Of a DNA stretch of 64,000 nucleotides, positions 42,868 to 63,437 are shown piece by piece. Position 1 is the first letter of the stretch, and every line of letters begins with the position of its first letter. The stretch lies in contig CAYPFN010000004.1 of the NCBI GenBank assembly GCA_964410325.1, forward strand, positions 1,486 through 65,485, read 5' to 3'. The translations under genes and the position numbers were made by a program. The notes under the pieces are model-generated. The model was not told the DNA's origin and made no database searches. It saw only the letters and a program-made list of their open reading frames with translations. The DNA is from an uncultured Azospirillaceae bacterium. Its GTDB lineage: Bacteria; Pseudomonadota; Alphaproteobacteria; RF32; CAG-239.

Positions 42868-43860
42868 ATGTATAATTATTTTTTGTCGGGGGCTGTCATG
42901 CTTAGTTTGAAAAATTTTTCCTTAATTTTGGTCGGAATACTGTTTTGGAGCGTTTCTGCCGAGGCTCGAGTTTGTTTTTTAGCCGGAAGTGATGATGATG
43001 AAAACTGTTTGACCTCTATAGGAGATTTTGTCGAGGATGGATGTTCGGGGTATTTATCTTGTGACATTCCAATTATTGGCGCATCAACTTGCGCTAACAG
43101 TGAGCAGTCTCTTTACCAGCCGGAAGATTGTTGTTCGAACGGCTCTTATTTTGAACGTTGTGACGGTGAGGGGCAGGTTTGTAACGGCGTCAGTTGTAAG
43201 GGCTATGATGCAAACGGCGACATTTACGAATCTTGTGAAATTGGATACTGTAGCTGTGATAGCTCTTATTCGGAAACTTGTTCGGGAAATGGTTTAACCG
43301 GTGATGGCGAAGCTTGTAATGGTTTGTATCAGAGCTGTAAATGTTCTGATGAATATTATGCTTGTGATGCTGAAGCTGAAGGTAGTGGCTCTTCTTGTTA
43401 CGACGACACACAAAAATATACTTCTTGTACATGTCCGGATGCTGATGGAAGCACATGGGTGTCCGATGCAAGCGATTGTTGTTTTGGTTACTCTAAATAT
43501 TGTGTTAATCGTCCTAGTGGCCGTATTGTTTATGAGTGTAACCTAGTAACGTTTGAGAATTGTTCCTGTGGATATACTTATGCATCAGGTACTTCATCAT
43601 GCATAAACGGCTGTACTGATGAAGATTATGAATATGTCGGGGTTCCAGAGAATGTGACTTGTAAAGATCTTCTCAACGGGCTTAGCACAACCTGCGGCAA
43701 CAATTGTACTTGTAAAAGCGGATATTGGGATTTTACGGAAAGTTGTGAACAACAGGTGTCTACAGTTTGTACCAATATAGGATATACAGATACTTCGTGC
43801 AGCGGTGAATGGATTGCTTGCCCATATGATGCTTCAGCGAAGAAATGTCTGAATATATAA
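42868..43860 (+). CDS. Cysteine-rich secreted protein (330 aa; ~45 Cys), hypothetical
   Basis: Signal peptide (MLSLKNFSLILVGILFWSVSAEA; likely start at ~42898). The mature part is dominated by C, G, S, D, E, Y, T with recurring CSG/CxC/SC spacings. Confidence 0.55.
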   Translation: MYNYFLSGAVMLSLKNFSLILVGILFWSVSAEARVCFLAGSDDDENCLTSIGDFVEDGCSGYLSCDIPIIGASTCANSEQSLYQPEDCCSNGSYFERCDGEGQVCNGVSCKGYDANGDIYESCEIGYCSCDSSYSETCSGNGLTGDGEACNGLYQSCKCSDEYYACDAEAEGSGSSCYDDTQKYTSCTCPDADGSTWVSDASDCCFGYSKYCVNRPSGRIVYECNLVTFENCSCGYTYASGTSSCINGCTDEDYEYVGVPENVTCKDLLNGLSTTCGNNCTCKSGYWDFTESCEQQVSTVCTNIGYTDTSCSGEWIACPYDASAKKCLNI

Positions 43861-45650: not shown

Positions 45651-46337
45651 TCATTTAACCTCATCCGGATCGCGTAGAACGTAACCGCGGCCCCAGACGG
45701 TTTCAATATAATTTTTACCACCAGAGGCTTTTTCTAATTTTTTACGCAGCTTACAGATGAAGACATCAATAATTTTTAATTCAGGTTCATCAATACCGCC
45801 ATAAAGATGGTTTAAAAACTGATCTTTGTTTAAGGTAGAACCTTTACGCAAAGACAATAGCTCCATAATACCGTATTCTTTACCAGTTAGATGTAATGCT
45901 TTGCCACAGACGGTTACCGTTTGTGTATCAAGATTGACTTCAACATCGCCAGTTTTAATAATGGAGTTGGAATGTCCTTTTGAGCGACGGACAATAGCCT
46001 GAATACGCGCTAAAAGTTCGGATTTGTCAAAAGGTTTGGTCAGATAGTCGTCCGCGCCATAACCTAAACCCTTAACCTTTTTATCTGGTTCGCTTAAACC
46101 GGAGAGAATTAAAACAGGAGTGTTGACTTTGGCATTGCGCAGACTTTTTAGAACTTCATAACCATTCATATCCGGAAGCATCAGGTCTAGAATAATGATA
46201 TCATAATCGTATAATTTGCCGATTTCGAGTCCATCTTCGCCCAAATCGGTCGCATCAACAATCATGCCTTCTTTTTTTAACATTATTTCAATGTTTTGCG
46301 AGACGGCATAATCATCTTCTACTAACAATACTCTCAT
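45651..46337 (-). CDS. ctrA: Cell-cycle response regulator CtrA (OmpR family)
   Basis: 228 aa. Receiver domain with D51-type [11 protein letters not shown], and a winged-helix C-terminus ending in the GRGYVLRD-type motif. Confidence 0.85.
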
Positions 46338-47210: not shown

Positions 47211-47286
47211 GGTCCCATCGTCTAGAGGCTTAGGACGCGGCCCTCTCAAGGCTGCAACACGGGTTCGAATCCCGTTGGGATCACCA
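47211..47286 (+). tRNA. tRNA-Glu (anticodon read as CTC)
   Basis: GGTCCCATCGTCTAGAGGCTTAGGACGCGGCCCTCTCAAGGCTGCAACACGGGTTCGAATCCCGTTGGGATCACCA, which aligns with the canonical tRNA-Glu. The anticodon loop is CTCTCAA. Confidence 0.75.
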
Positions 47287-47292
47287 ATGCAA

Positions 47293-47321: not shown

Positions 47322-47400
47322 TGACCCTAGAGATTCGAACCCGAGGTTCGTTCAATTGCGACTAAATTTCGCTTTGCGACGCTGTCGCTTGCTTGCTCAA
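47322..47400 (-). repeat. Degenerate inverted partial copy of the tRNA-Glu 3' half
   Basis: The reverse complement contains CCTCGGGTTCGAATCTCTAGGGTCAACA. Compare the tRNA's ACACGGGTTCGAATCCCGTTGGGATCACCA. Confidence 0.35.
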
Positions 47401-47458: not shown

Positions 47459-47480
47459 CCGTTGGGATCACCAATGCAAA
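47459..47480 (+). repeat. Direct repeat of the tRNA-Glu 3' end (ccgttgggatcaccaatgcaa), att-site-like scar
   Basis: An exact ~21-bp copy of 47272-47292, located 187 bp downstream. Confidence 0.5.
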
Positions 47481-47665: not shown

Positions 47666-48448
47666 TTAACGTAGATTTATGCCGTATTTCTTTACTAAGC
47701 TTTTCAGAGCCTCTTTAGTGATCTTATCTTGATACCATTGTTGTCTTTCTTCTTTAAAAAATTCATTTCCGGCCGTCATACAGTCAGGGCAAAAGGGAGA
47801 TATATTGTGTTTTTTTGCGAGTAATCGGGCTCTTGTTATATCGCTAAAATCGCCATCAGATCTTTGTTGCATAATGCACATCTCGTCTGGATCTGTACAA
47901 TGTGGGCCTAAATTCTCTTCAGAATTTTTTCTTCTTTCGTAAGTAAGATTAATAACATGTCCAAACTCGTGCATTAATACTGTTTTGAAGTTTTCGCGAT
48001 CAATCAGCTTGCCGTTTTGATTTGAAAAGCGGTAGGCAGAAACAACACAGCCAATCCTCTCTTCTCCTATACCTAGACAATATGCATCCTTATCATAAGG
48101 ATATAAATCATCTTTTGTCAACAAGATTGTAAATTGTGGAATTTGTTGATTTGTCGGGTCTTTCTGCATTGTTTCAAGTAAGGTGCTTGCATTTAGCCGA
48201 TGATAATTAGGGTCTGGTCGGGCATTTTCAATATGCCAACGAGTGCTTTTATATGGAGCCAGATAAAGCTTCCCATTTTGAGAATAGATATACCCATGAT
48301 CTTTCCATGCACCTAAATTAGTAATTGGATAATCATTTTTATATTCAGGGAAAAACCCCATGATTTCGCTAATTGCTTCGACAGCGACATAGTTTACTTC
48401 AGGATCAAGCCCATCTTGGCTAACTATATAAATATCTCTCTGTTTCAT
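47666..48448 (-). CDS. Archaemetzincin-like (peptidase M54-like) zinc metallopeptidase
   Basis: 260 aa. HEFGHVINL followed by C..DPDEMCIM and CPDC, reminiscent of the archaemetzincin HExxHxxGx3Cx4CxMx17CxxC signature. The spacings are not identical. Confidence 0.5.
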   Translation of the reverse strand: MKQRDIYIVSQDGLDPEVNYVAVEAISEIMGFFPEYKNDYPITNLGAWKDHGYIYSQNGKLYLAPYKSTRWHIENARPDPNYHRLNASTLLETMQKDPTNQQIPQFTILLTKDDLYPYDKDAYCLGIGEERIGCVVSAYRFSNQNGKLIDRENFKTVLMHEFGHVINLTYERRKNSEENLGPHCTDPDEMCIMQQRSDGDFSDITRARLLAKKHNISPFCPDCMTAGNEFFKEERQQWYQDKITKEALKSLVKKYGINLR

Positions 48449-48624
48449 GATATATCCCTCTGTTCTATATTATACCCTTATTTTTATTAAAAATCAAGGA
48501 ATGCAAATAGCCAGCCGTTTTACAACTTGTCCGAACAATTTATTTATTGATATATTTTAAAGATAGGATTATGAGATATTTCTTTTGCAATAGACACCGC
48601 TTCTTTAAAAACTGGCAATAAATT

Positions 48625-49317
48625 ATGCTCCATAATTTCATAAGGATCTTTTTGTTGTTTATTTTGCAGCATTCAACTTCTCCATATTTATTTATATCAA
48701 GATACTTAAATAATTTTAAAGATGATTACCATGCATCCAGACGATTATATGCGATGTCTATAGCATCTTTGGTTATAAATTTATTGAATGCTAAGAATAA
48801 TTCGGATGAACTGAAAAAGAAAAATATAAAGATGCTCGATGTAATTCAAGAGAGAACTTATTATAACGCAGATGGTAGTTTAAGAAAAGAAAGTATTTTT
48901 TATCACCCGGAAATTATAAAATTCAAGATTCAAATGAATAAATTAGGAGGAGGATATTTTGATGATGCTGTTATATGTCGTTGCGTAGAGAGTTTTAAGC
49001 TTGATAGTGGTATGAGTACATTTAGCGAAGGACAGCCCATTATTTCTCCTGATGGAAAAATTTTAGATTGGGAAAAGGCATCAAATTCTGCTATATTTAA
49101 ATTTGCCGTTAGGGATATGGTAATTGATATGTATTCCCGTGAGATGGAACGTTATAAAAAACTCAATGAGGATGAGAAAATGAGAGAAGTTAGATATTTT
49201 ATCAATAAAGAGTGCGAAGAAACAATAAATACGAAAATAGCTGAAAGTTGCTCAGAAAGACAGGGCTCTTCGGTTGTTGGCTTATTTATGGATAAAGGAG
49301 GAAAAGGCATCGCGTAA
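48625..49317 (+). CDS. Hypothetical protein; true start probably an internal Met (MSIASLV.. or MLDVIQ..)
   Basis: The first ~40 codons look like a translated AT-rich promoter. The remainder is non-repetitive with a Cys pair (CRCVESF). No motif. Confidence 0.35.
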   Translation: MLHNFIRIFLLFILQHSTSPYLFISRYLNNFKDDYHASRRLYAMSIASLVINLLNAKNNSDELKKKNIKMLDVIQERTYYNADGSLRKESIFYHPEIIKFKIQMNKLGGGYFDDAVICRCVESFKLDSGMSTFSEGQPIISPDGKILDWEKASNSAIFKFAVRDMVIDMYSREMERYKKLNEDEKMREVRYFINKECEETINTKIAESCSERQGSSVVGLFMDKGGKGIA

Positions 49318-50549: not shown

Positions 50550-50743
50550 TTTAACTTTCTTTAAAGTTAGTATGAAACCAGAAAGTGAGTATTGAATCAG
50601 CGTAAGTTTCTTTTTAAATTGCATTGTGGTAATGTGAGGATAAATCACGGCAGTGCGAAAATTTTTTGTCATTTGTATTGACTGTGGTGGCTTTAAGCAT
50701 ATTGCCGAAAGCAGACCTGGCAATATAATCAGGAGGAAGAAAT

Positions 50744-51298
50744 ATGAATAAAAAAATTGTTATATTAAACGGAAGTCCGCGCCTGAACGGCAATACTCAA
50801 GGTCTGATTGAAGCCTTCAGTAAAGGCGCGAAAAGCAAGGGATATGAGGTTAAATGTTTTAATCTGCAAAAGATGAATATTCATGGATGTTTAGGGTGTT
50901 TTGGTGGTGGTAGAGATAAAAACAGTCCCTGTGTTCAAAAGGATGATATGCTACAGATATATCCGGATTATGTTGCGGCAGATATTATTGTACTGGCTTC
51001 ACCGATGTATTATTGGGGTTTTTCAGGACAATTAAAATGTGCATTTGACCGTTTGTTTGCGGTTGCCGAATGTAATCCGAATTATGAAAATCCAAAAAAA
51101 GACTGTGTTTTGCTTATGGCTTCGGAAGGCAATGATAAAGATAATGCCAAACCTGTAAAGTACTATTATGAAAAACTTTTGGCGCATCTAGGCTGGCGTG
51201 ATTTGGGACAAATTTATGCTGGCGGTGTTTTAAAACTTGGCGATATTAAAGGGCATAAAGCTTTGCTTGAAGCGGAGCAGCTGGGTATTTCTTTATAA
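50744..51298 (+). CDS. Flavodoxin-like NAD(P)H-dependent FMN reductase family protein
   Basis: 184 aa. MNKKIVILNGSPRLNGNT is typical of the NADPH-dependent FMN reductase fold. Confidence 0.6.
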   Translation: MNKKIVILNGSPRLNGNTQGLIEAFSKGAKSKGYEVKCFNLQKMNIHGCLGCFGGGRDKNSPCVQKDDMLQIYPDYVAADIIVLASPMYYWGFSGQLKCAFDRLFAVAECNPNYENPKKDCVLLMASEGNDKDNAKPVKYYYEKLLAHLGWRDLGQIYAGGVLKLGDIKGHKALLEAEQLGISL

Positions 51299-51302
51299 TT
51301 AA

Positions 51303-51336
51303 AATAAAAAACCGGCTTTGTGCCGGTTTTTTATTT
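51303..51336. terminator. Bidirectional hairpin terminator between the flavodoxin-like gene and hxlR-family gene
   Basis: aaaaaaccggctttgtgccggttttttatttt. Confidence 0.55.
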
Positions 51337-51668
51337 TAAGAACGATGTTTATCACCCCAATCGCATAAATCAAATAAAATCGGAATTAAAGATTTTCCTT
51401 TTTCTGACAAACTATATTCAACTTTAGGAGGCATTTCCAGATAAACTTTTCGTAAAACCAGGCCGTCTTTTTCTAACTCTTTTAACGAGGTGCTTAACAT
51501 TTTAAATGATATCTTGCCGATTAAACGGTGCAGGGCATTGTGTCGCAAAATGCCGAATTCACCTAGCCAGTAAAGTATAATCATTTTATATTTGCCACCG
51601 ATGAGTGATAATGTGTAGCCAAATCCAGTGTCTTCAATTTTGATGTTTGGTTCGATACAGCGTTGCAT
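51336..51668 (-). CDS. HxlR-family winged-helix transcriptional regulator
   Basis: 110 aa. Recognition helix region SFKMLSTSLKELEKDGLVLRKVY..PPKVEYSLSEKG. Confidence 0.7.
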   Translation of the reverse strand: MQRCIEPNIKIEDTGFGYTLSLIGGKYKMIILYWLGEFGILRHNALHRLIGKISFKMLSTSLKELEKDGLVLRKVYLEMPPKVEYSLSEKGKSLIPILFDLCDWGDKHRS

Positions 51669-51745
51669 TTTAAGCTATCCTTAAGGTTAGTATTAAACGA
51701 AAAGGTAAGTATTGAATAAAAATATATTATAGGGATATATTTTTA

Positions 51746-52234
51746 TTGGCAATAGAATTTTTAAAAGGAAGAACCATGAATAGAAAACTTTTAACAATTA
51801 TCGCAGCGGTAATTTTTTGTTTGGGAAGCCAAGCAAAAGCTGCTGAAAATACAGTGAAAGGAGAAACAATGCAGGAAGTAAAAGTGAGTGATTACGAGGC
51901 GGTTAAAGAGGCCTTAGGTAAATATCTCGAGGCGGGCAGGCAAGGAAAAAGTGCTGTTTTGCGTCCGGCGGTTTATAAAGATGCCATAATGTACAGCGCT
52001 GCCGGCGGTAAAGTTGAAGGAGGCTCGATAAACGCTTTATTTGATTATTTAGATAACAATCCAGCAGCACCGGAAATTGAAGCAGAAATTACGGCTGTTG
52101 ATGTAGCCGGGAATATTGCTTATGTTAAGGTAGAATCAGATAAATGGCATGGCGCGCGTTATACAGACATGTTTTTGCTGGTTAAAGACGGTAGTGAATG
52201 GAAAATTTTAACCAAAGTATTCCATACGCATTAA
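51746..52234 (+). CDS. Secreted NTF2-like/SnoaL-like protein (lipoprotein-type signal)
   Basis: Signal peptide with C at FCLGS. The size and C-terminal pattern (W..L.KDGSEWKI) suggest an NTF2-like fold. Confidence 0.4.
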   Translation: MAIEFLKGRTMNRKLLTIIAAVIFCLGSQAKAAENTVKGETMQEVKVSDYEAVKEALGKYLEAGRQGKSAVLRPAVYKDAIMYSAAGGKVEGGSINALFDYLDNNPAAPEIEAEITAVDVAGNIAYVKVESDKWHGARYTDMFLLVKDGSEWKILTKVFHTH

Positions 52235-58482: not shown

Positions 58483-59562
58483 ATGTCTTTAAATTTCATA
58501 TTTGGCGTTTTGTTAATATGTGTCGGGTTTGTTTGTTCTCGGGTGATTTTAAATTTTTTACGTATGGACGGTGGTGAAATCAGAGAATATACTTTTCTAA
58601 AAGATCCGTGGCTATATATCTTTTTTTTGACAGGCGTCGGCTTATTGGCGATTTTTTTTCTGATGCCGAATTTTAATGATGTTGTTGTTCCTTTAACAAT
58701 TACTCCGTTGGGGGTGTTGTTGGGGTTATCGCTACTTATTTATGTAGTTTTTTTATTAGAAGAGGATTGGCTGTTTTATTTAGTTTTGGCCGGCGCAAGT
58801 CTGGTTTTGGCTTTTATGATTCCCGATGAAGTATTACTTTTTGAGGGTTTAGTGCCTTTGTGGGTTGATAGGTTGATTGTTGCGGCTGCGGTATTTATAT
58901 TTACGAGTTTAGCTCAATGGTTGAATGGTTTGCCCAACATTTTTACCATTCAGTGCCTGACAATTACAATTGGTTTGTTTGTTATGGCTTTGGTTGGCGG
59001 TGTTTCGCAAATTTTAGGATTTGCCGGCGCTTGTTTGGCTGGAGTATGGTTGGGATTATTCAATTTAAATCAAATTTCTGGAACGGGTATACTGAATAAC
59101 GGCGCATGCGCAGCGGCGGCGTTTGTTTTTTCAGGCTTGTTGATTGATGGTGCTCTGGAGATGGCCGGACCGTCAATGGTGATTTTGATAATGTATGCGT
59201 TATCTGAGGGAATGTGGAGCATTGTCTGCCGGTATATTTTAGGAATAAAACGACTGGATTGGTCAGATAATACGACCTATATGTCTGTGGCCGATAAAGG
59301 AGCGTCAATAGACGCCATAAACACGGCTGTTATTAAAATAGGGCTGGTTAATGTCATGTTAGCCGGTTTCCAGCTTTTTGCCGTTAACGCCTTTTCAATT
59401 CCCTTGTTTGCTTTGGCTGTTAATTTGTGGCTCCTTAGCATGTTATATAATGCGGATAACAAAAAACAATCTTTGAGGGAAGTTAACCGAGATTTTGTCA
59501 GCAATATCAAAGAAGAGCTGAAAGAGATCCAACAATCATTCAGGAAAGGCAAAGGTCGGTAA
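58483..59562 (+). CDS. Polytopic membrane protein, hypothetical (359 aa)
   Basis: 8+ hydrophobic helices. Its start abuts the rsmB stop. Confidence 0.45.
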   Translation: MSLNFIFGVLLICVGFVCSRVILNFLRMDGGEIREYTFLKDPWLYIFFLTGVGLLAIFFLMPNFNDVVVPLTITPLGVLLGLSLLIYVVFLLEEDWLFYLVLAGASLVLAFMIPDEVLLFEGLVPLWVDRLIVAAAVFIFTSLAQWLNGLPNIFTIQCLTITIGLFVMALVGGVSQILGFAGACLAGVWLGLFNLNQISGTGILNNGACAAAAFVFSGLLIDGALEMAGPSMVILIMYALSEGMWSIVCRYILGIKRLDWSDNTTYMSVADKGASIDAINTAVIKIGLVNVMLAGFQLFAVNAFSIPLFALAVNLWLLSMLYNADNKKQSLREVNRDFVSNIKEELKEIQQSFRKGKGR

Positions 59563-60902
59563 TGTTTTTTACAGGACTTAAAAATTTATTTAATAGTTCT
59601 GCGTTGGAAGTTGCTGTTCCGGAAAAAAGGCGGATAAAGGTTGTTGTGGCTGCTTTTGCAGATGATTGTCCGGAAAATTCGGGAAAAATTTTAGCGCAGT
59701 ATCTGTCCGGATTAGATTTTTTGGCCGTAAAATATTATGAAAATCCGTTAGGAAGAGATTTTGTTAATCTTAACAGTCGGAATTTTTTTGATTTTATTGA
59801 TTTAGGAAGACAAATTATCAACGTAACGGAAGCGGATGTCCTTATATGGGGGAATCGGGAACAAGATAGAATTCGTTTGAATTTTCAAATCTTGCGTCAA
59901 TACGAGAAGCAAGATTTGCCGTTTTTTTCTTTGTTGAATAATTTGTATCTTCCGCTGTCGTATCTTCAGGAGAGAAATTTTCCAACATCTATGCAGTTTT
60001 TAATTGGAGGCGTTATTGTGGCGGTGGCTGATTTGAAAAACCACCGGGAACAAAAAGAGAAACTAGCAGAAATTTTGGATAAAATCGGCCGAGAGCACTC
60101 TCCCAGAGGATTAGAAGTTTTTTACATGCCGTATATTTTAAATATTTTGGCGCTGATTTATTTGTGCTCAAAAGCTGAAGAATTAAAATTGTCAGACGTG
60201 AAAATTGTTTCGGATTTATGGGCAAAAGCCTACAAAAGCCTGTCGGCAGGTAAAGATTTGCTTTTAAGCGGCAATATATATGCTGGTTTGGGGCAGCTGT
60301 ATCAATTGGCAGCGGAGAATCTGCAGCGGAATAAATATATTTTTTATAAAAACGCCGCCGAATGTTATCGATATGCGCAAAAATGTTTCAGTCGCCATTC
60401 CTATCCGTATGATTTTGGTATTTTATCTTATCTGCTTTCAAAAGTTTATTACGGATACTGGAAACAATCTTCAGATGTTCAGGCACTGCGTGATTCTGTA
60501 TTTCACCTTCGGGAAGCAGAAAAGTTTTTTTCAAAAGCTTCATTCCCTTATTTTTGGGCGGATATTCAGGGAGATTTAGGCTTATATCTATCGTTATTGG
60601 GCTTGTTTGGGCGCAATGATGAAATTTCTATGTTGGCTGTTGAAAATTATAAAAATCGCCAGAGAATTTATACGCGGGAACAATGGCCTTTGGAATGGGC
60701 AAAGGCTGAAGAAAGCATCGGTAATATTTTTTATAATTCAGGCAAAAGGTTTGATGACGAGGAGTATTTGGAAGAGGCTATAAAATATTATGCTGAAGCA
60801 GCGGATATATATGAAAATAACCGTTTGAGCACGGAATTAAAACAAACGCAGATTTGCATTGCCAAAGCAGATGAACATATTATGCAGCTTAACCGGAAAT
60901 AA
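59562..60902 (+). CDS. Hypothetical soluble protein with TPR-like repeats (446 aa)
   Basis: Its start overlaps the preceding stop by 1 nt (TAATG). The C-terminal half has repeated A/Y-rich helical pairs. Confidence 0.45.
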   Translation: MFFTGLKNLFNSSALEVAVPEKRRIKVVVAAFADDCPENSGKILAQYLSGLDFLAVKYYENPLGRDFVNLNSRNFFDFIDLGRQIINVTEADVLIWGNREQDRIRLNFQILRQYEKQDLPFFSLLNNLYLPLSYLQERNFPTSMQFLIGGVIVAVADLKNHREQKEKLAEILDKIGREHSPRGLEVFYMPYILNILALIYLCSKAEELKLSDVKIVSDLWAKAYKSLSAGKDLLLSGNIYAGLGQLYQLAAENLQRNKYIFYKNAAECYRYAQKCFSRHSYPYDFGILSYLLSKVYYGYWKQSSDVQALRDSVFHLREAEKFFSKASFPYFWADIQGDLGLYLSLLGLFGRNDEISMLAVENYKNRQRIYTREQWPLEWAKAEESIGNIFYNSGKRFDDEEYLEEAIKYYAEAADIYENNRLSTELKQTQICIAKADEHIMQLNRK

Positions 60903-60948
60903 TGCTTGCATAAAGTTTAATTTTATTTTATGAAATAAACCGATATTG

Positions 60949-61041
60949 GGAGAGATGGCAGAGCGGTTGAATGCGGTTGACTCGAAATCAATTGTACTCT
61001 TTAACGGGGTACCTAGGGTTCGAATCCCTATCTCTCCGCCA
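60949..61041 (+). tRNA. tRNA-Ser (anticodon CGA)
   Basis: GGAGAGATGGCAGAGCGGTTGAATGCGGTTGACTCGAAATCAATTG..long arm..TAGGGTTCGAATCCCTATCTCTCCGCCA. Closely parallels the E. coli tRNA-Ser(CGA) layout. Confidence 0.8.
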
Positions 61042-61047
61042 TTAAGC

Positions 61048-61076
61048 AAAACCCCGCACAAGGCGGGGTTTTGCTT
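61048..61076. terminator. Bidirectional hairpin terminator
   Basis: aaaaccccgcacaaggcggggttttg. Confidence 0.55.
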
Positions 61077-61087
61077 TGCGATTTAAG

Positions 61088-62314
61088 TTATTTTTTTGTT
61101 TCAGCGTGGTAATCAATATGGCAGTCTTTGCATAACATTATGCAGTTTTCTATGGTTGTTTCGCCACCGTCAGCAAAAGCTTTTTTATGATGGCCTTCCA
61201 GGTCTTTCAAGGCAAAATTTTTGCCACAGCGGGCGCATTTGCCACCTTGCCTTTCATAGGCTTGTTTTTGTTGATGTTCGCTAAAAGCTCGATGCCAAAT
61301 CAGCGTTCTGTCATCAGATAGGCAATATTCATAAAAGCCTTTCTTTTTCAAGCCGTCGGGGTCGATATCATAAAGCTCATATAAATGGTTAAGTTTTTCG
61401 GCAATCTGCGCCGAATTAAAACTTTTATGATGATATTTATTGTACAAAATTCCCCAATCAAGGCCTTTCATATCCGTGCGATAAGTGATAAACGTGTGTT
61501 TAACCCATGAAATAACATTTTTGAAATAATCAATAAGTTCACCAGCGTCATTGTCAAAACGGTGCTTGCCCATATAATCTTTAATTTGCGGATATTCCGC
61601 CGGTTGCGCATCAATTCGCCAGCCAAGAGCAAGTTCCAACAGCAGTTGTCGGTTTGCTTTATCGCCGAGTCCGCCCATATCGCCCAGGGTTTTATCCGCC
61701 GACAGGCTAAGCAAGGTTTTTTTGTCGTCATTGTCGTAATAAGAAATGGCAATCGCTTCATTGTTATTTTTCTTAGAGAAAAACTGTTTCGCTGCCGTCA
61801 GCCACTGACCGGTATAATTAGCATTAAGAAGTTCCTGATTGGTCATTTGTTTACCGGCAATGTTAATGGTGTGAAACCAATCCAACTTCTCATCATCTGT
61901 CCCTTCGCAGACGTAAACTTGTAGCCGATAATCCAAAATTTCTTTCTGTTTATCAGGGGTGAGACCTTCAAAAGTTTGCGTATTTCTGCCGTTAAAGTCA
62001 ATGGCAATAGGGTTGCCGTATCCGTCATCATTGGTGATAAACTGGCAGATAGAAATCAGACGTTGCTGTCCGTCAATAACCTCGAAAGTTCCGTCCGGAT
62101 TGACAGCCCAATACATACTGTTCAATGGCATGTTGTTATATACCGAGAGCATCACCCGATCCCTGTCATCGGGATTATAGACGAACGCCCGCTGATACGC
62201 CGGACGAACATTAAGTTTCCCGCCAAAAGCCACCACGCCTTGCTCGCCTTTATCCAAATAGCCGCCCACTAAATCTCTGATAGTAATAACTGGCTGAGTC
62301 GTTTTCATTGTCAT
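61088..62314 (-). CDS. DUF262 (ParB/Srx-like, DGQQR motif) - HNH endonuclease fusion protein; predicted restriction/defence nuclease
   Basis: 408 aa. N-terminal ..FEVIDGQQRLISICQF.. is the DUF262 hallmark. C-terminal GGKCARCG...EGHHKKAFADGG...NCIMLCKDCHIDYH is the classical HNH pattern (CxxC...HH...N...CxxCH). Confidence 0.7.
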   Translation of the reverse strand: MTMKTTQPVITIRDLVGGYLDKGEQGVVAFGGKLNVRPAYQRAFVYNPDDRDRVMLSVYNNMPLNSMYWAVNPDGTFEVIDGQQRLISICQFITNDDGYGNPIAIDFNGRNTQTFEGLTPDKQKEILDYRLQVYVCEGTDDEKLDWFHTINIAGKQMTNQELLNANYTGQWLTAAKQFFSKKNNNEAIAISYYDNDDKKTLLSLSADKTLGDMGGLGDKANRQLLLELALGWRIDAQPAEYPQIKDYMGKHRFDNDAGELIDYFKNVISWVKHTFITYRTDMKGLDWGILYNKYHHKSFNSAQIAEKLNHLYELYDIDPDGLKKKGFYEYCLSDDRTLIWHRAFSEHQQKQAYERQGGKCARCGKNFALKDLEGHHKKAFADGGETTIENCIMLCKDCHIDYHAETKK

Positions 62315-62315
62315 A

Positions 62316-63437
62316 TCAGTTCTCCTTTTTCTTAATCAAAATACGAGCATATGCAGAATAAACACATTCGTGGGTCAAAGGGTGGATATAATAATTTCCT
62401 TTTGATGATTTTCCTAATAAAACAGGATTTCCTCGTGTCTTTCGTCCGCTCGCATTAGTATAAGTGCCGTCTTGTCTAATTTCTTTAAAATCATCATACT
62501 CCCGTATTGCAGGAATTCCGGCCAATATTTCATCACTTGAATTTAAAAGACCGATAATGTTAAATTGTTTGGGATTATATTTATCCAAAAAGGTTATCGG
62601 CACCCCCATCGCCCCGATATAATCCATCGGGATGTCGCTGACCTTATCAACATTAATGGCGTCGTAATTGTCATATTTGGGATACATTTCTTCATAGCCG
62701 TAATATTTTTTGCCGGTATTAATTACCTCAATTCTTCGGCTATTTTCCAAATTTGTATACCAGCTGACATTACCAAAGTTCTTAACTAAACCGTCTGGCT
62801 TGTAAAACTGCTTAACATGATGTAACCCACACCAAAACTTATTTTCTTTTATCAACGGAAAAATTTCTTTATAGGTGCGACAGTTATCATTGCCGATAAT
62901 TAAAAATTTTTTATTGTACTGTATAAGCTGCGCCACATATTCGCGAAATAGAGAAAACGGTGGGTTGGTTATTACGATATCCGCTTGTTTTAACAGCGCA
63001 ATACATTCTTCACTTCTAAAATCGCCGTTTCCTTTGAGCGGGATTTCTGTAATATCTTCAAAGCAAGCGATTTTGTCGCCGGTATTGTCCTTATCCAAAA
63101 TATACATAGAAGAGTTTTTTTTATCTTTCTCGTAGTGGGTGGCTATAACTTTTTTGATTTTAAATGCCTCAAAATTATCCGCCAGATATTTCAAAAAATT
63201 TGACTTTGGCGTTCCCAGGCCGATGCCGTTATGGTCATCGCAGTTGCAATAAATCACCTTGCCTTTGAAATATTTGGCATAATTGGACAGTTCTTTTTTG
63301 ATATCTTCGTATGTGGTATAAAATTCGTCATTCTTAGCATTTTTTGCTCTCTTTAAGTTCTTGTGTCCCATTGTCAAAACTCCCAACAAAAAATCGCCTT
63401 TGGTGCAAAAGGCGACTGGAAGTTCGAAGCTACTCAT
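62316..63437 (-). CDS. DNA methyltransferase, NPPF motif (N6-adenine or N4-cytosine; EcoRI-methylase-like family by recollection)
   Basis: 373 aa. IVITNPPFSLFREY is catalytic motif IV. N-terminal DEFYTTYEDI and VIYCNCDD segments are present. The stop is 1 nt from the nuclease start, implying an operon. Confidence 0.65.
   Translation of the reverse strand: MSSFELPVAFCTKGDFLLGVLTMGHKNLKRAKNAKNDEFYTTYEDIKKELSNYAKYFKGKVIYCNCDDHNGIGLGTPKSNFLKYLADNFEAFKIKKVIATHYEKDKKNSSMYILDKDNTGDKIACFEDITEIPLKGNGDFRSEECIALLKQADIVITNPPFSLFREYVAQLIQYNKKFLIIGNDNCRTYKEIFPLIKENKFWCGLHHVKQFYKPDGLVKNFGNVSWYTNLENSRRIEVINTGKKYYGYEEMYPKYDNYDAINVDKVSDIPMDYIGAMGVPITFLDKYNPKQFNIIGLLNSSDEILAGIPAIREYDDFKEIRQDGTYTNASGRKTRGNPVLLGKSSKGNYYIHPLTHECVYSAYARILIKKKEN

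Follow-up and report, generated by a model that had tools for sequence, protein, structure and literature searches.

Archaemetzincins are among the least understood of the metzincins, and we know of no physiological substrate for any prokaryotic member. As canonical archaemetzincins (PF07998, NF033823) we take AmzA of M. kandleri (2X7M), AmzA of A. fulgidus (3ZVS/4AXQ), the M. labreanum protein 3LMC, AMZ-tk of T. kodakarensis and human AMZ1/AMZ2. DUF6775 is an archaeal protein of the archaemetzincin fold, linked to Thi4, in which HExxH is missing and a Cys3His site is present. The canonical archaemetzincin fingerprint reads HExxHxxGxxHCx4CxMx17CxxC (PMC3427221, PMC4681839). Endoprotease activity has been described for AMZ-tk (PMC4681839), and aminopeptidase activity, cited with reservations, for human AMZ1/2 (PMC3427221). 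Here we describe a gene in a stretch of 64,000 nucleotides (the window) of contig CAYPFN010000004.1, from an uncultured Azospirillaceae bacterium. This gene is quite likely to encode a zinc metallopeptidase of the metzincin type, soluble and located in the cytoplasm, with its origin in the archaemetzincin lineage (MEROPS M54), belonging to a long-loop group of that lineage and carried as a long-inherited stand-alone gene.

The gene is real. It is a minus-strand open reading frame (ORF) with an ATG start, and the original prediction had read in its 260-residue translation an HEFGH motif followed by a cysteine cluster. That reading stands, and the motif is kept across 24 homologues. The coding sequence and the elements that bear on its function are the following.

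47666..48448, minus strand: archaemetzincin-like metzincin coding sequence, 260 residues, 30.4 kDa, pI 6.0
47957-47971, minus strand: codons of H160-E161-F162-G163-H164, putatively two ligands of the catalytic zinc with the catalytic Glu between them; HMMER and hhalign match to the canonical HELGH
47903..47941, minus strand: residues 170-182, a family-specific insertion of ~13 residues between HExxHxx[G/N]L-T and G-x-H-C
47897..47902, minus strand: H183-C184, a His inferred to be the third ligand of the catalytic zinc, with the initial Cys of the Cys4 site right after it
47870..47878, minus strand: C191-I192-M193, putatively the next Cys of the Cys4 site, together with the Met of the Met-turn
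47780..47791, minus strand: C220-P-D-C223, the CxxC pair completing the putative Cys4 structural zinc site
47684..47788, minus strand: long C-terminal helix, residues 221-255, taken from the structure model and poorly conserved in sequence

In an alignment of the 24 homologues, which are 40-71% identical (A1), no variation is seen at E161, H164, G181, H183, C184, C191 and M193. Of the 24, 23 have H160, and C220 and C223 are kept in all the sequences that extend that far. A second alignment holds 66 long-loop representatives sampled from the profile search described below (A2); here the position of H183 is a His in 63 and that of C184 a Cys in 65. The putative catalytic residue E161 is present in 24/24 and 63/66 relatives, respectively. 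To judge from these alignments, the pattern of conserved His and Cys residues is not due to chance. The window protein contains the element G181-P-H183-C184, in which the third His is directly followed by the first Cys, as the archaemetzincin family requires, and this element aligns to the canonical GHC. Since no conserved His, Asp or Glu was found inside the insertion 170-182, H183 is the sole candidate for the third zinc ligand, a role that we infer for it.

The relationship with the archaemetzincins emerged from sequence profiles as well as from structure. The NCBIfam model NF033823 ('archaemetzincin') matched residues 79-169 of the window protein with an E value of 3.8e-9. It also matched 65 of the 66 A2 members (best E 4e-19), while PF07998 matched 36 of them (best E 1.6e-8). 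A single-sequence phmmer search against the PDB sequences matched nothing; with the A1 profile three archaemetzincin sequences ranked first (E ~5e-4), in an alignment spanning the 'DLY..N(F/Y)xxG' strand region and HExxH. An AlphaFold2 model based on A1 (pLDDT, the predicted local distance difference test, of 92.1; predicted template modelling score 0.89) has the archaemetzincin three-dimensional fold, and Foldseek gave the same ranking as the profile search, with archaemetzincins on top. In this model HEFGH sits on the active-site helix (residues 151-165), and the pLDDT dips to 76-81 over the insertion 170-182. Among the viral structures of BFVD only weak matches to giant-virus metallopeptidases were found. 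Unlike DUF6775, to which it has no Pfam match, the window protein has a full catalytic motif. Finally, A2 was compared by hhalign with eight canonical archaemetzincin C-terminal fragments (A3), retrieved with a 65-residue query and making a poor outgroup. The two aligned with 99.1% probability (E 6e-19); 13 columns are cleanly inserted between 'HExxHxxGL' and 'GHC', and there are some 9 additional columns ahead of CxxC. These comparisons indicate that the window protein is a real, distant archaemetzincin homologue.

A number of points weigh against this assignment. PF07998, the check that had been proposed for the M54 assignment, found no match in the window protein at E<=10 (gathering score 24.4 bits), although 14 of its 24 close relatives do match (best E 4.2e-6). 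With NF033823 the window protein scored 36.7 bits, where the cut-off is 145, so that it falls below both curated family cut-offs. The metzincin extension HExxHxxGxxH is broken as well: position 167, the 'strictly conserved' Gly, is an Asn in the window protein (Gly in 19/24 A1 and 52/66 A2 sequences), and position 170 is a Tyr and unconserved. Alignment and conservation are what the ligand role of H183 is read from. The comparisons of gene neighbourhoods gave no genomic context that points to a substrate. Moreover, AmzA of M. kandleri and of A. fulgidus showed no detectable activity in vitro and have occluded clefts (PMC3427221), so that activity as a peptidase cannot be taken for granted even in canonical proteins. 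The description as an archaemetzincin-like HExxH/Cys4 metallopeptidase is kept, with qualifications. The fold, the profile-profile comparison and the NCBIfam match bear it out; membership of the canonical M54 family in the strict sense does not hold, because the curated thresholds are missed and the motif spacing departs from the canonical fingerprint, and we use 'archaemetzincin-like' rather than the strict family name.

The unusual spacing is a property of a whole family and not of this protein alone. An exhaustive search with the profile covered 1.84 billion cluster representatives and yielded 655 long-loop representatives (clusters at 50% identity) within E<=1e-3, of which 315 reached E<=1e-10; most are 210-240 residues long and match the profile end to end. 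The motifs were checked in the best 150 of the 655 together with the close homologues, and H[EQ]xxH...HC...CxM...CxxC was present in 159 of the 176 relatives retrieved. The second His and HC are 16-26 residues apart (mostly 18-19) in 158 of these 159, as against 5 in the canonical fingerprint. From Met to CxxC the distance is 22-27 residues in most long-loop members, whereas it is 17 in the canonical proteins. The window protein itself has spacings of 18 (second His to HC), 6 (Cys to Cys) and 26 (Met to CxxC). Its Cx6C is shared with its closest relatives, while most other members have Cx3-4C and the canonical spacing is x4. Two further differences from the archaemetzincins lie outside the motifs: a beta-hairpin of ~20 residues inserted at 47-66, and an added helix of ~35 residues at the C-terminus, which reaches beyond the length of the archaeal proteins (their crystal structures model 158-191 residues). 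Given the homology found by hhalign and the shifted spacings, the long-loop family is homologous to M54 but differs systematically in its motif geometry.

Few of the long-loop members carry a source name, and those that do are all annotated as 'hypothetical protein'; the sources named are Alphaproteobacteria, Pseudomonadota, Ca. Magasanikbacteria and Ca. Roizmanbacteria. The subclade of the window protein comprises 33 loci in 32 metagenome-assembled genomes (MAGs; one genome per GTDB species), all from uncultured Alphaproteobacteria in human gut, rumen, chicken or reindeer samples. In a neighbour-joining tree, which is rough and without support values, the alphaproteobacterial sequences form a single clade (89 of the 211 tips) that is nested in the long-loop family, and the canonical fragments fall outside. 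Duplication of the peptidase has occurred within this clade, as seen from two paralogues (L014 and L038) located ~30 kb apart on contig JAQWBS010000004.1 of one MAG, which share 56% and 39% identity with the window protein. In the long relatives, fusions to other domains were limited to scattered HopA1 and Metallophos domains and were uninformative; the distant members P0041 and P0162 are such fusions, which comprise an 850-residue protein with a HopA1 effector-family domain and a 959-residue protein with a calcineurin-like phosphoesterase. We tentatively consider, at somewhat less than even confidence, that the long-loop proteins constitute a sister family to the archaemetzincins that is mainly bacterial and has not been described, in which the third His is displaced by 13 residues from its otherwise universal place in the metzincin HExxHxxGxxH/D and the Gly is dispensable. 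If true, this would be a new way to build the active site of a metzincin, and its specificity might be gated in a distinct manner.

The established archaemetzincin structures (PMC3427221) suggest how such a protein could work. The catalytic zinc would be held by H160 and H164 on the active-site helix, together with H183, and E161 would act as the general base, polarising a zinc-bound water for attack on the scissile peptide bond. M193 would form the Met-turn beneath the catalytic site. A second, structural zinc would be bound by C184, C191, C220 and C223 (the Cys4 'zinc finger') and would stabilise the C-terminal subdomain. The insertion of ~13 residues and the 5-10 extra residues before CxxC are expected to adjoin the primed side of the cleft; this side of the cleft is probably gated or shaped by the family-specific loops 170-182 and 194-219, together with helix 221-255 at the C-terminus, as a lid or a specificity element. 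What the analysis itself establishes is homology, fold, residue conservation and distribution. By analogy with human AMZ1/2 and AMZ-tk, the protein would most likely trim or cleave cytoplasmic peptides, or act on one specific protein. A cytoplasmic location is predicted because no hydrophobic segment was found: the 260 residues contain no signal peptide or transmembrane segment (maximal Kyte-Doolittle value 0.70, 19-residue window).

Bacteria also offer a precedent for a protein of this ancestry that does not cleave peptides. CarG of Myxococcus xanthus is archaemetzincin-derived, with a His/Cys zinc motif (PMC3427221), and the window protein might likewise be a non-proteolytic regulatory or structural partner. 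The in vitro inactivity of the archaeal AmzA enzymes would agree with this, as would the weak matches of NF033824 ('non-proteolytic archaemetzincin-like protein') to 12 of the 66 family members (best E 4.3e-6), a likeness to the CarG group. However, NF033824 does not match the window protein itself. CarG, the partner of the transcription factor CarD, is defined by the change of Glu to Gln in HExxH (HQxxH), and such a Gln was found in only 1 of the 159 motif-bearing relatives; the window protein keeps the Glu, and E161 is conserved as described above. The Met and the three His ligands are moreover retained at identities as low as ~24%. A non-proteolytic role is for these reasons unlikely, and we prefer to regard the protein as a peptidase.

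A second question concerns the origin of the gene, which the original prediction had placed in a tRNA-Glu-associated accessory patch. The features around the gene are these.

48469-48497, minus strand: putative sigma-70-like promoter, TTGATT-17-TATAAT, with -35 at 48492-48497 and -10 at 48469-48474
48456-48461, minus strand: Shine-Dalgarno AGAGGG, 7 nucleotides upstream of the peptidase ATG
47211-47286, plus strand: tRNA-Glu(CTC), convergent with the peptidase gene
47272-47292 and 47459-47479, plus strand: exact 21-nucleotide direct repeat of the tRNA-Glu 3' end, enclosing 166 bp

The promoter and the Shine-Dalgarno sequence were called as consensus matches only; the promoter candidate matches 10 of the 12 consensus positions, and the promoter scan was overall not enriched over shuffled sequences. 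The repeat consists of the last 15 nucleotides of tRNA-Glu plus ATGCAA, with 0 matches expected by chance, and looks from its sequence like an att-like scar of a tRNA-targeting integrative element that was small or has been largely deleted. Each copy of the repeat is followed by a terminator-like hairpin of its own, and the 166-bp segment holds a T-loop-like GGGTTCGAATC on the minus strand (~47332-47342).

This exact duplication of the tRNA 3' end adjoins the peptidase gene, which could then be recently acquired cargo of an island integrated at tRNA-Glu. In keeping with this, the gene contexts of the peptidase vary between genomes, the GC content is slightly lower at 48-50 kb (0.325), and in other MAGs several homologues have a tRNA gene (for Arg, Asn or Glu) no more than ~400 bp away. 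The repeats, however, enclose 166 bp only, and the peptidase gene lies outside them. The same convergent arrangement of peptidase and tRNA-Glu(CTC) is present in the closest GTDB relative (L010, 71% identity), and a convergent tRNA-Glu(TTC) occupies the same place in L007 (68% identity). Since the arrangement is common to these two, it predates the split of the lineages whose proteins are 68-71% identical. In addition, between the peptidase stop and the distal copy of the repeat, the window can be aligned with the spacer between peptidase and tRNA in L010, and because of this orthology the peptidase is placed on the ancestral chromosomal flank. No integrase was found, none of the 50,697 phage and 72,556 plasmid records was matched by tblastn, and PADLOC and PHROGs returned nothing for the peptidase or for its divergent 230-residue neighbour. 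The surroundings are of a core or housekeeping nature, with CtrA, SodB, GpsA and LeuRS on the flanks and also YjbR, FMN reductase, HxlR, a phosphoribosyltransferase and RsmB, and the single alphaproteobacterial clade in the tree likewise speaks against recent acquisition. We consider the cargo explanation very improbable and the accessory patch not upheld. On the evidence of these alignments, the peptidase gene is best described as a stand-alone chromosomal gene that has long been inherited within one clade of Alphaproteobacteria, uncultured and from gut and rumen.

The homologues adjacent to a tRNA gene (with the tRNA positions) are L013 (6118-6194), L037 (5936-6010), L021 (4175-4251), L025 (4205-4281), L026 (3017-3093), L007 (1055-1129) and L010 (5994-6069). 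The tRNA genes, of the types Arg-CCT, Asn and Glu, lie within a few hundred bp in genomes that are otherwise non-syntenic, and no integrase was seen beside these homologues. Such proximity seems commoner than expected for ~45 tRNA genes per genome.

The reprolysin/ADAM (M12B) and fragilysin-type metzincins are secreted zymogens with a canonical HExxHxxGxxH and with disulfides instead of a Cys4 zinc site. That the window protein is another bacterial metzincin (M12B, matrixin M10 or pappalysin M43) with disulfide cysteines, unrelated to archaemetzincin, is the least probable explanation of all: the Pfam scan gave only Reprolysin and M43, both below threshold (E ~0.03; PF01421 14.9 bits against a cut-off of 20.8), whereas archaemetzincin wins every comparison, the cysteines align to the Cys4 columns, and the window protein, unlike M12B members, has no signal peptide.

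The alphaproteobacterial setting was supported by a CtrA equivalog (45651-46337, 1.3 kb from the peptidase; 400.8 bits against a cut-off of 350) and by the close homologues, all of which come from Alphaproteobacteria MAGs; the host is assigned on these two grounds. The divergent arrangement with an uncharacterised gene also exists in the window: the neighbour is a plus-strand ORF of 230 residues (48625..49317) with no NCBIfam or Pfam match. The pairing is nevertheless not conserved, since an all-against-all BLAST of 42 loci and the window found this ORF beside the peptidase in none of the other loci. The same comparison at the level of ORFs revealed no neighbouring gene shared beyond very close relatives, and the only widespread 'neighbour' proved to be an antisense ORF within the peptidase gene itself. 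The gene contexts of distant family members are unrelated too.

Elsewhere in the window, a 48-nucleotide direct repeat, 79% identical, was observed at 50550-50597 and 51670-51717. The FMN-reductase gene (50744..51298) has one copy upstream of it, and the other is situated between the divergent genes for HxlR (51336..51668, minus strand) and a lumazine-binding-like protein (51746..52234, plus strand). The repeat is probably a shared HxlR operator/promoter module. Several sizeable ORFs of the window without an NCBIfam match encode 230, 330, 359, 446, 408 and 373 residues and are located at 48625-49317 (plus strand), at 42868-43860 (plus strand) and in 58483-63437; the 230- and 330-residue ORFs were also scanned against Pfam, where neither had a match.

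The peptidase opens no long-standing question by itself, and nothing ties it to mobility, defence or host interaction. It represents a long-loop subgroup of the known archaemetzincin kind and not a new kind of system, and is as such a modest curiosity. It does mark a sizeable unannotated branch in which the textbook HExxHxxGxxH spacing is broken and every metal ligand is kept, and which is therefore a natural test of the tolerance of the metzincin zinc site. The taxonomic labels so far are CPR/Patescibacteria (candidate phyla radiation) and gut Alphaproteobacteria, with source names recorded for almost none of the broad family. For these gut Alphaproteobacteria and candidate-phyla bacteria, the protein gives a starting point for the annotation of several hundred clusters of proteins.
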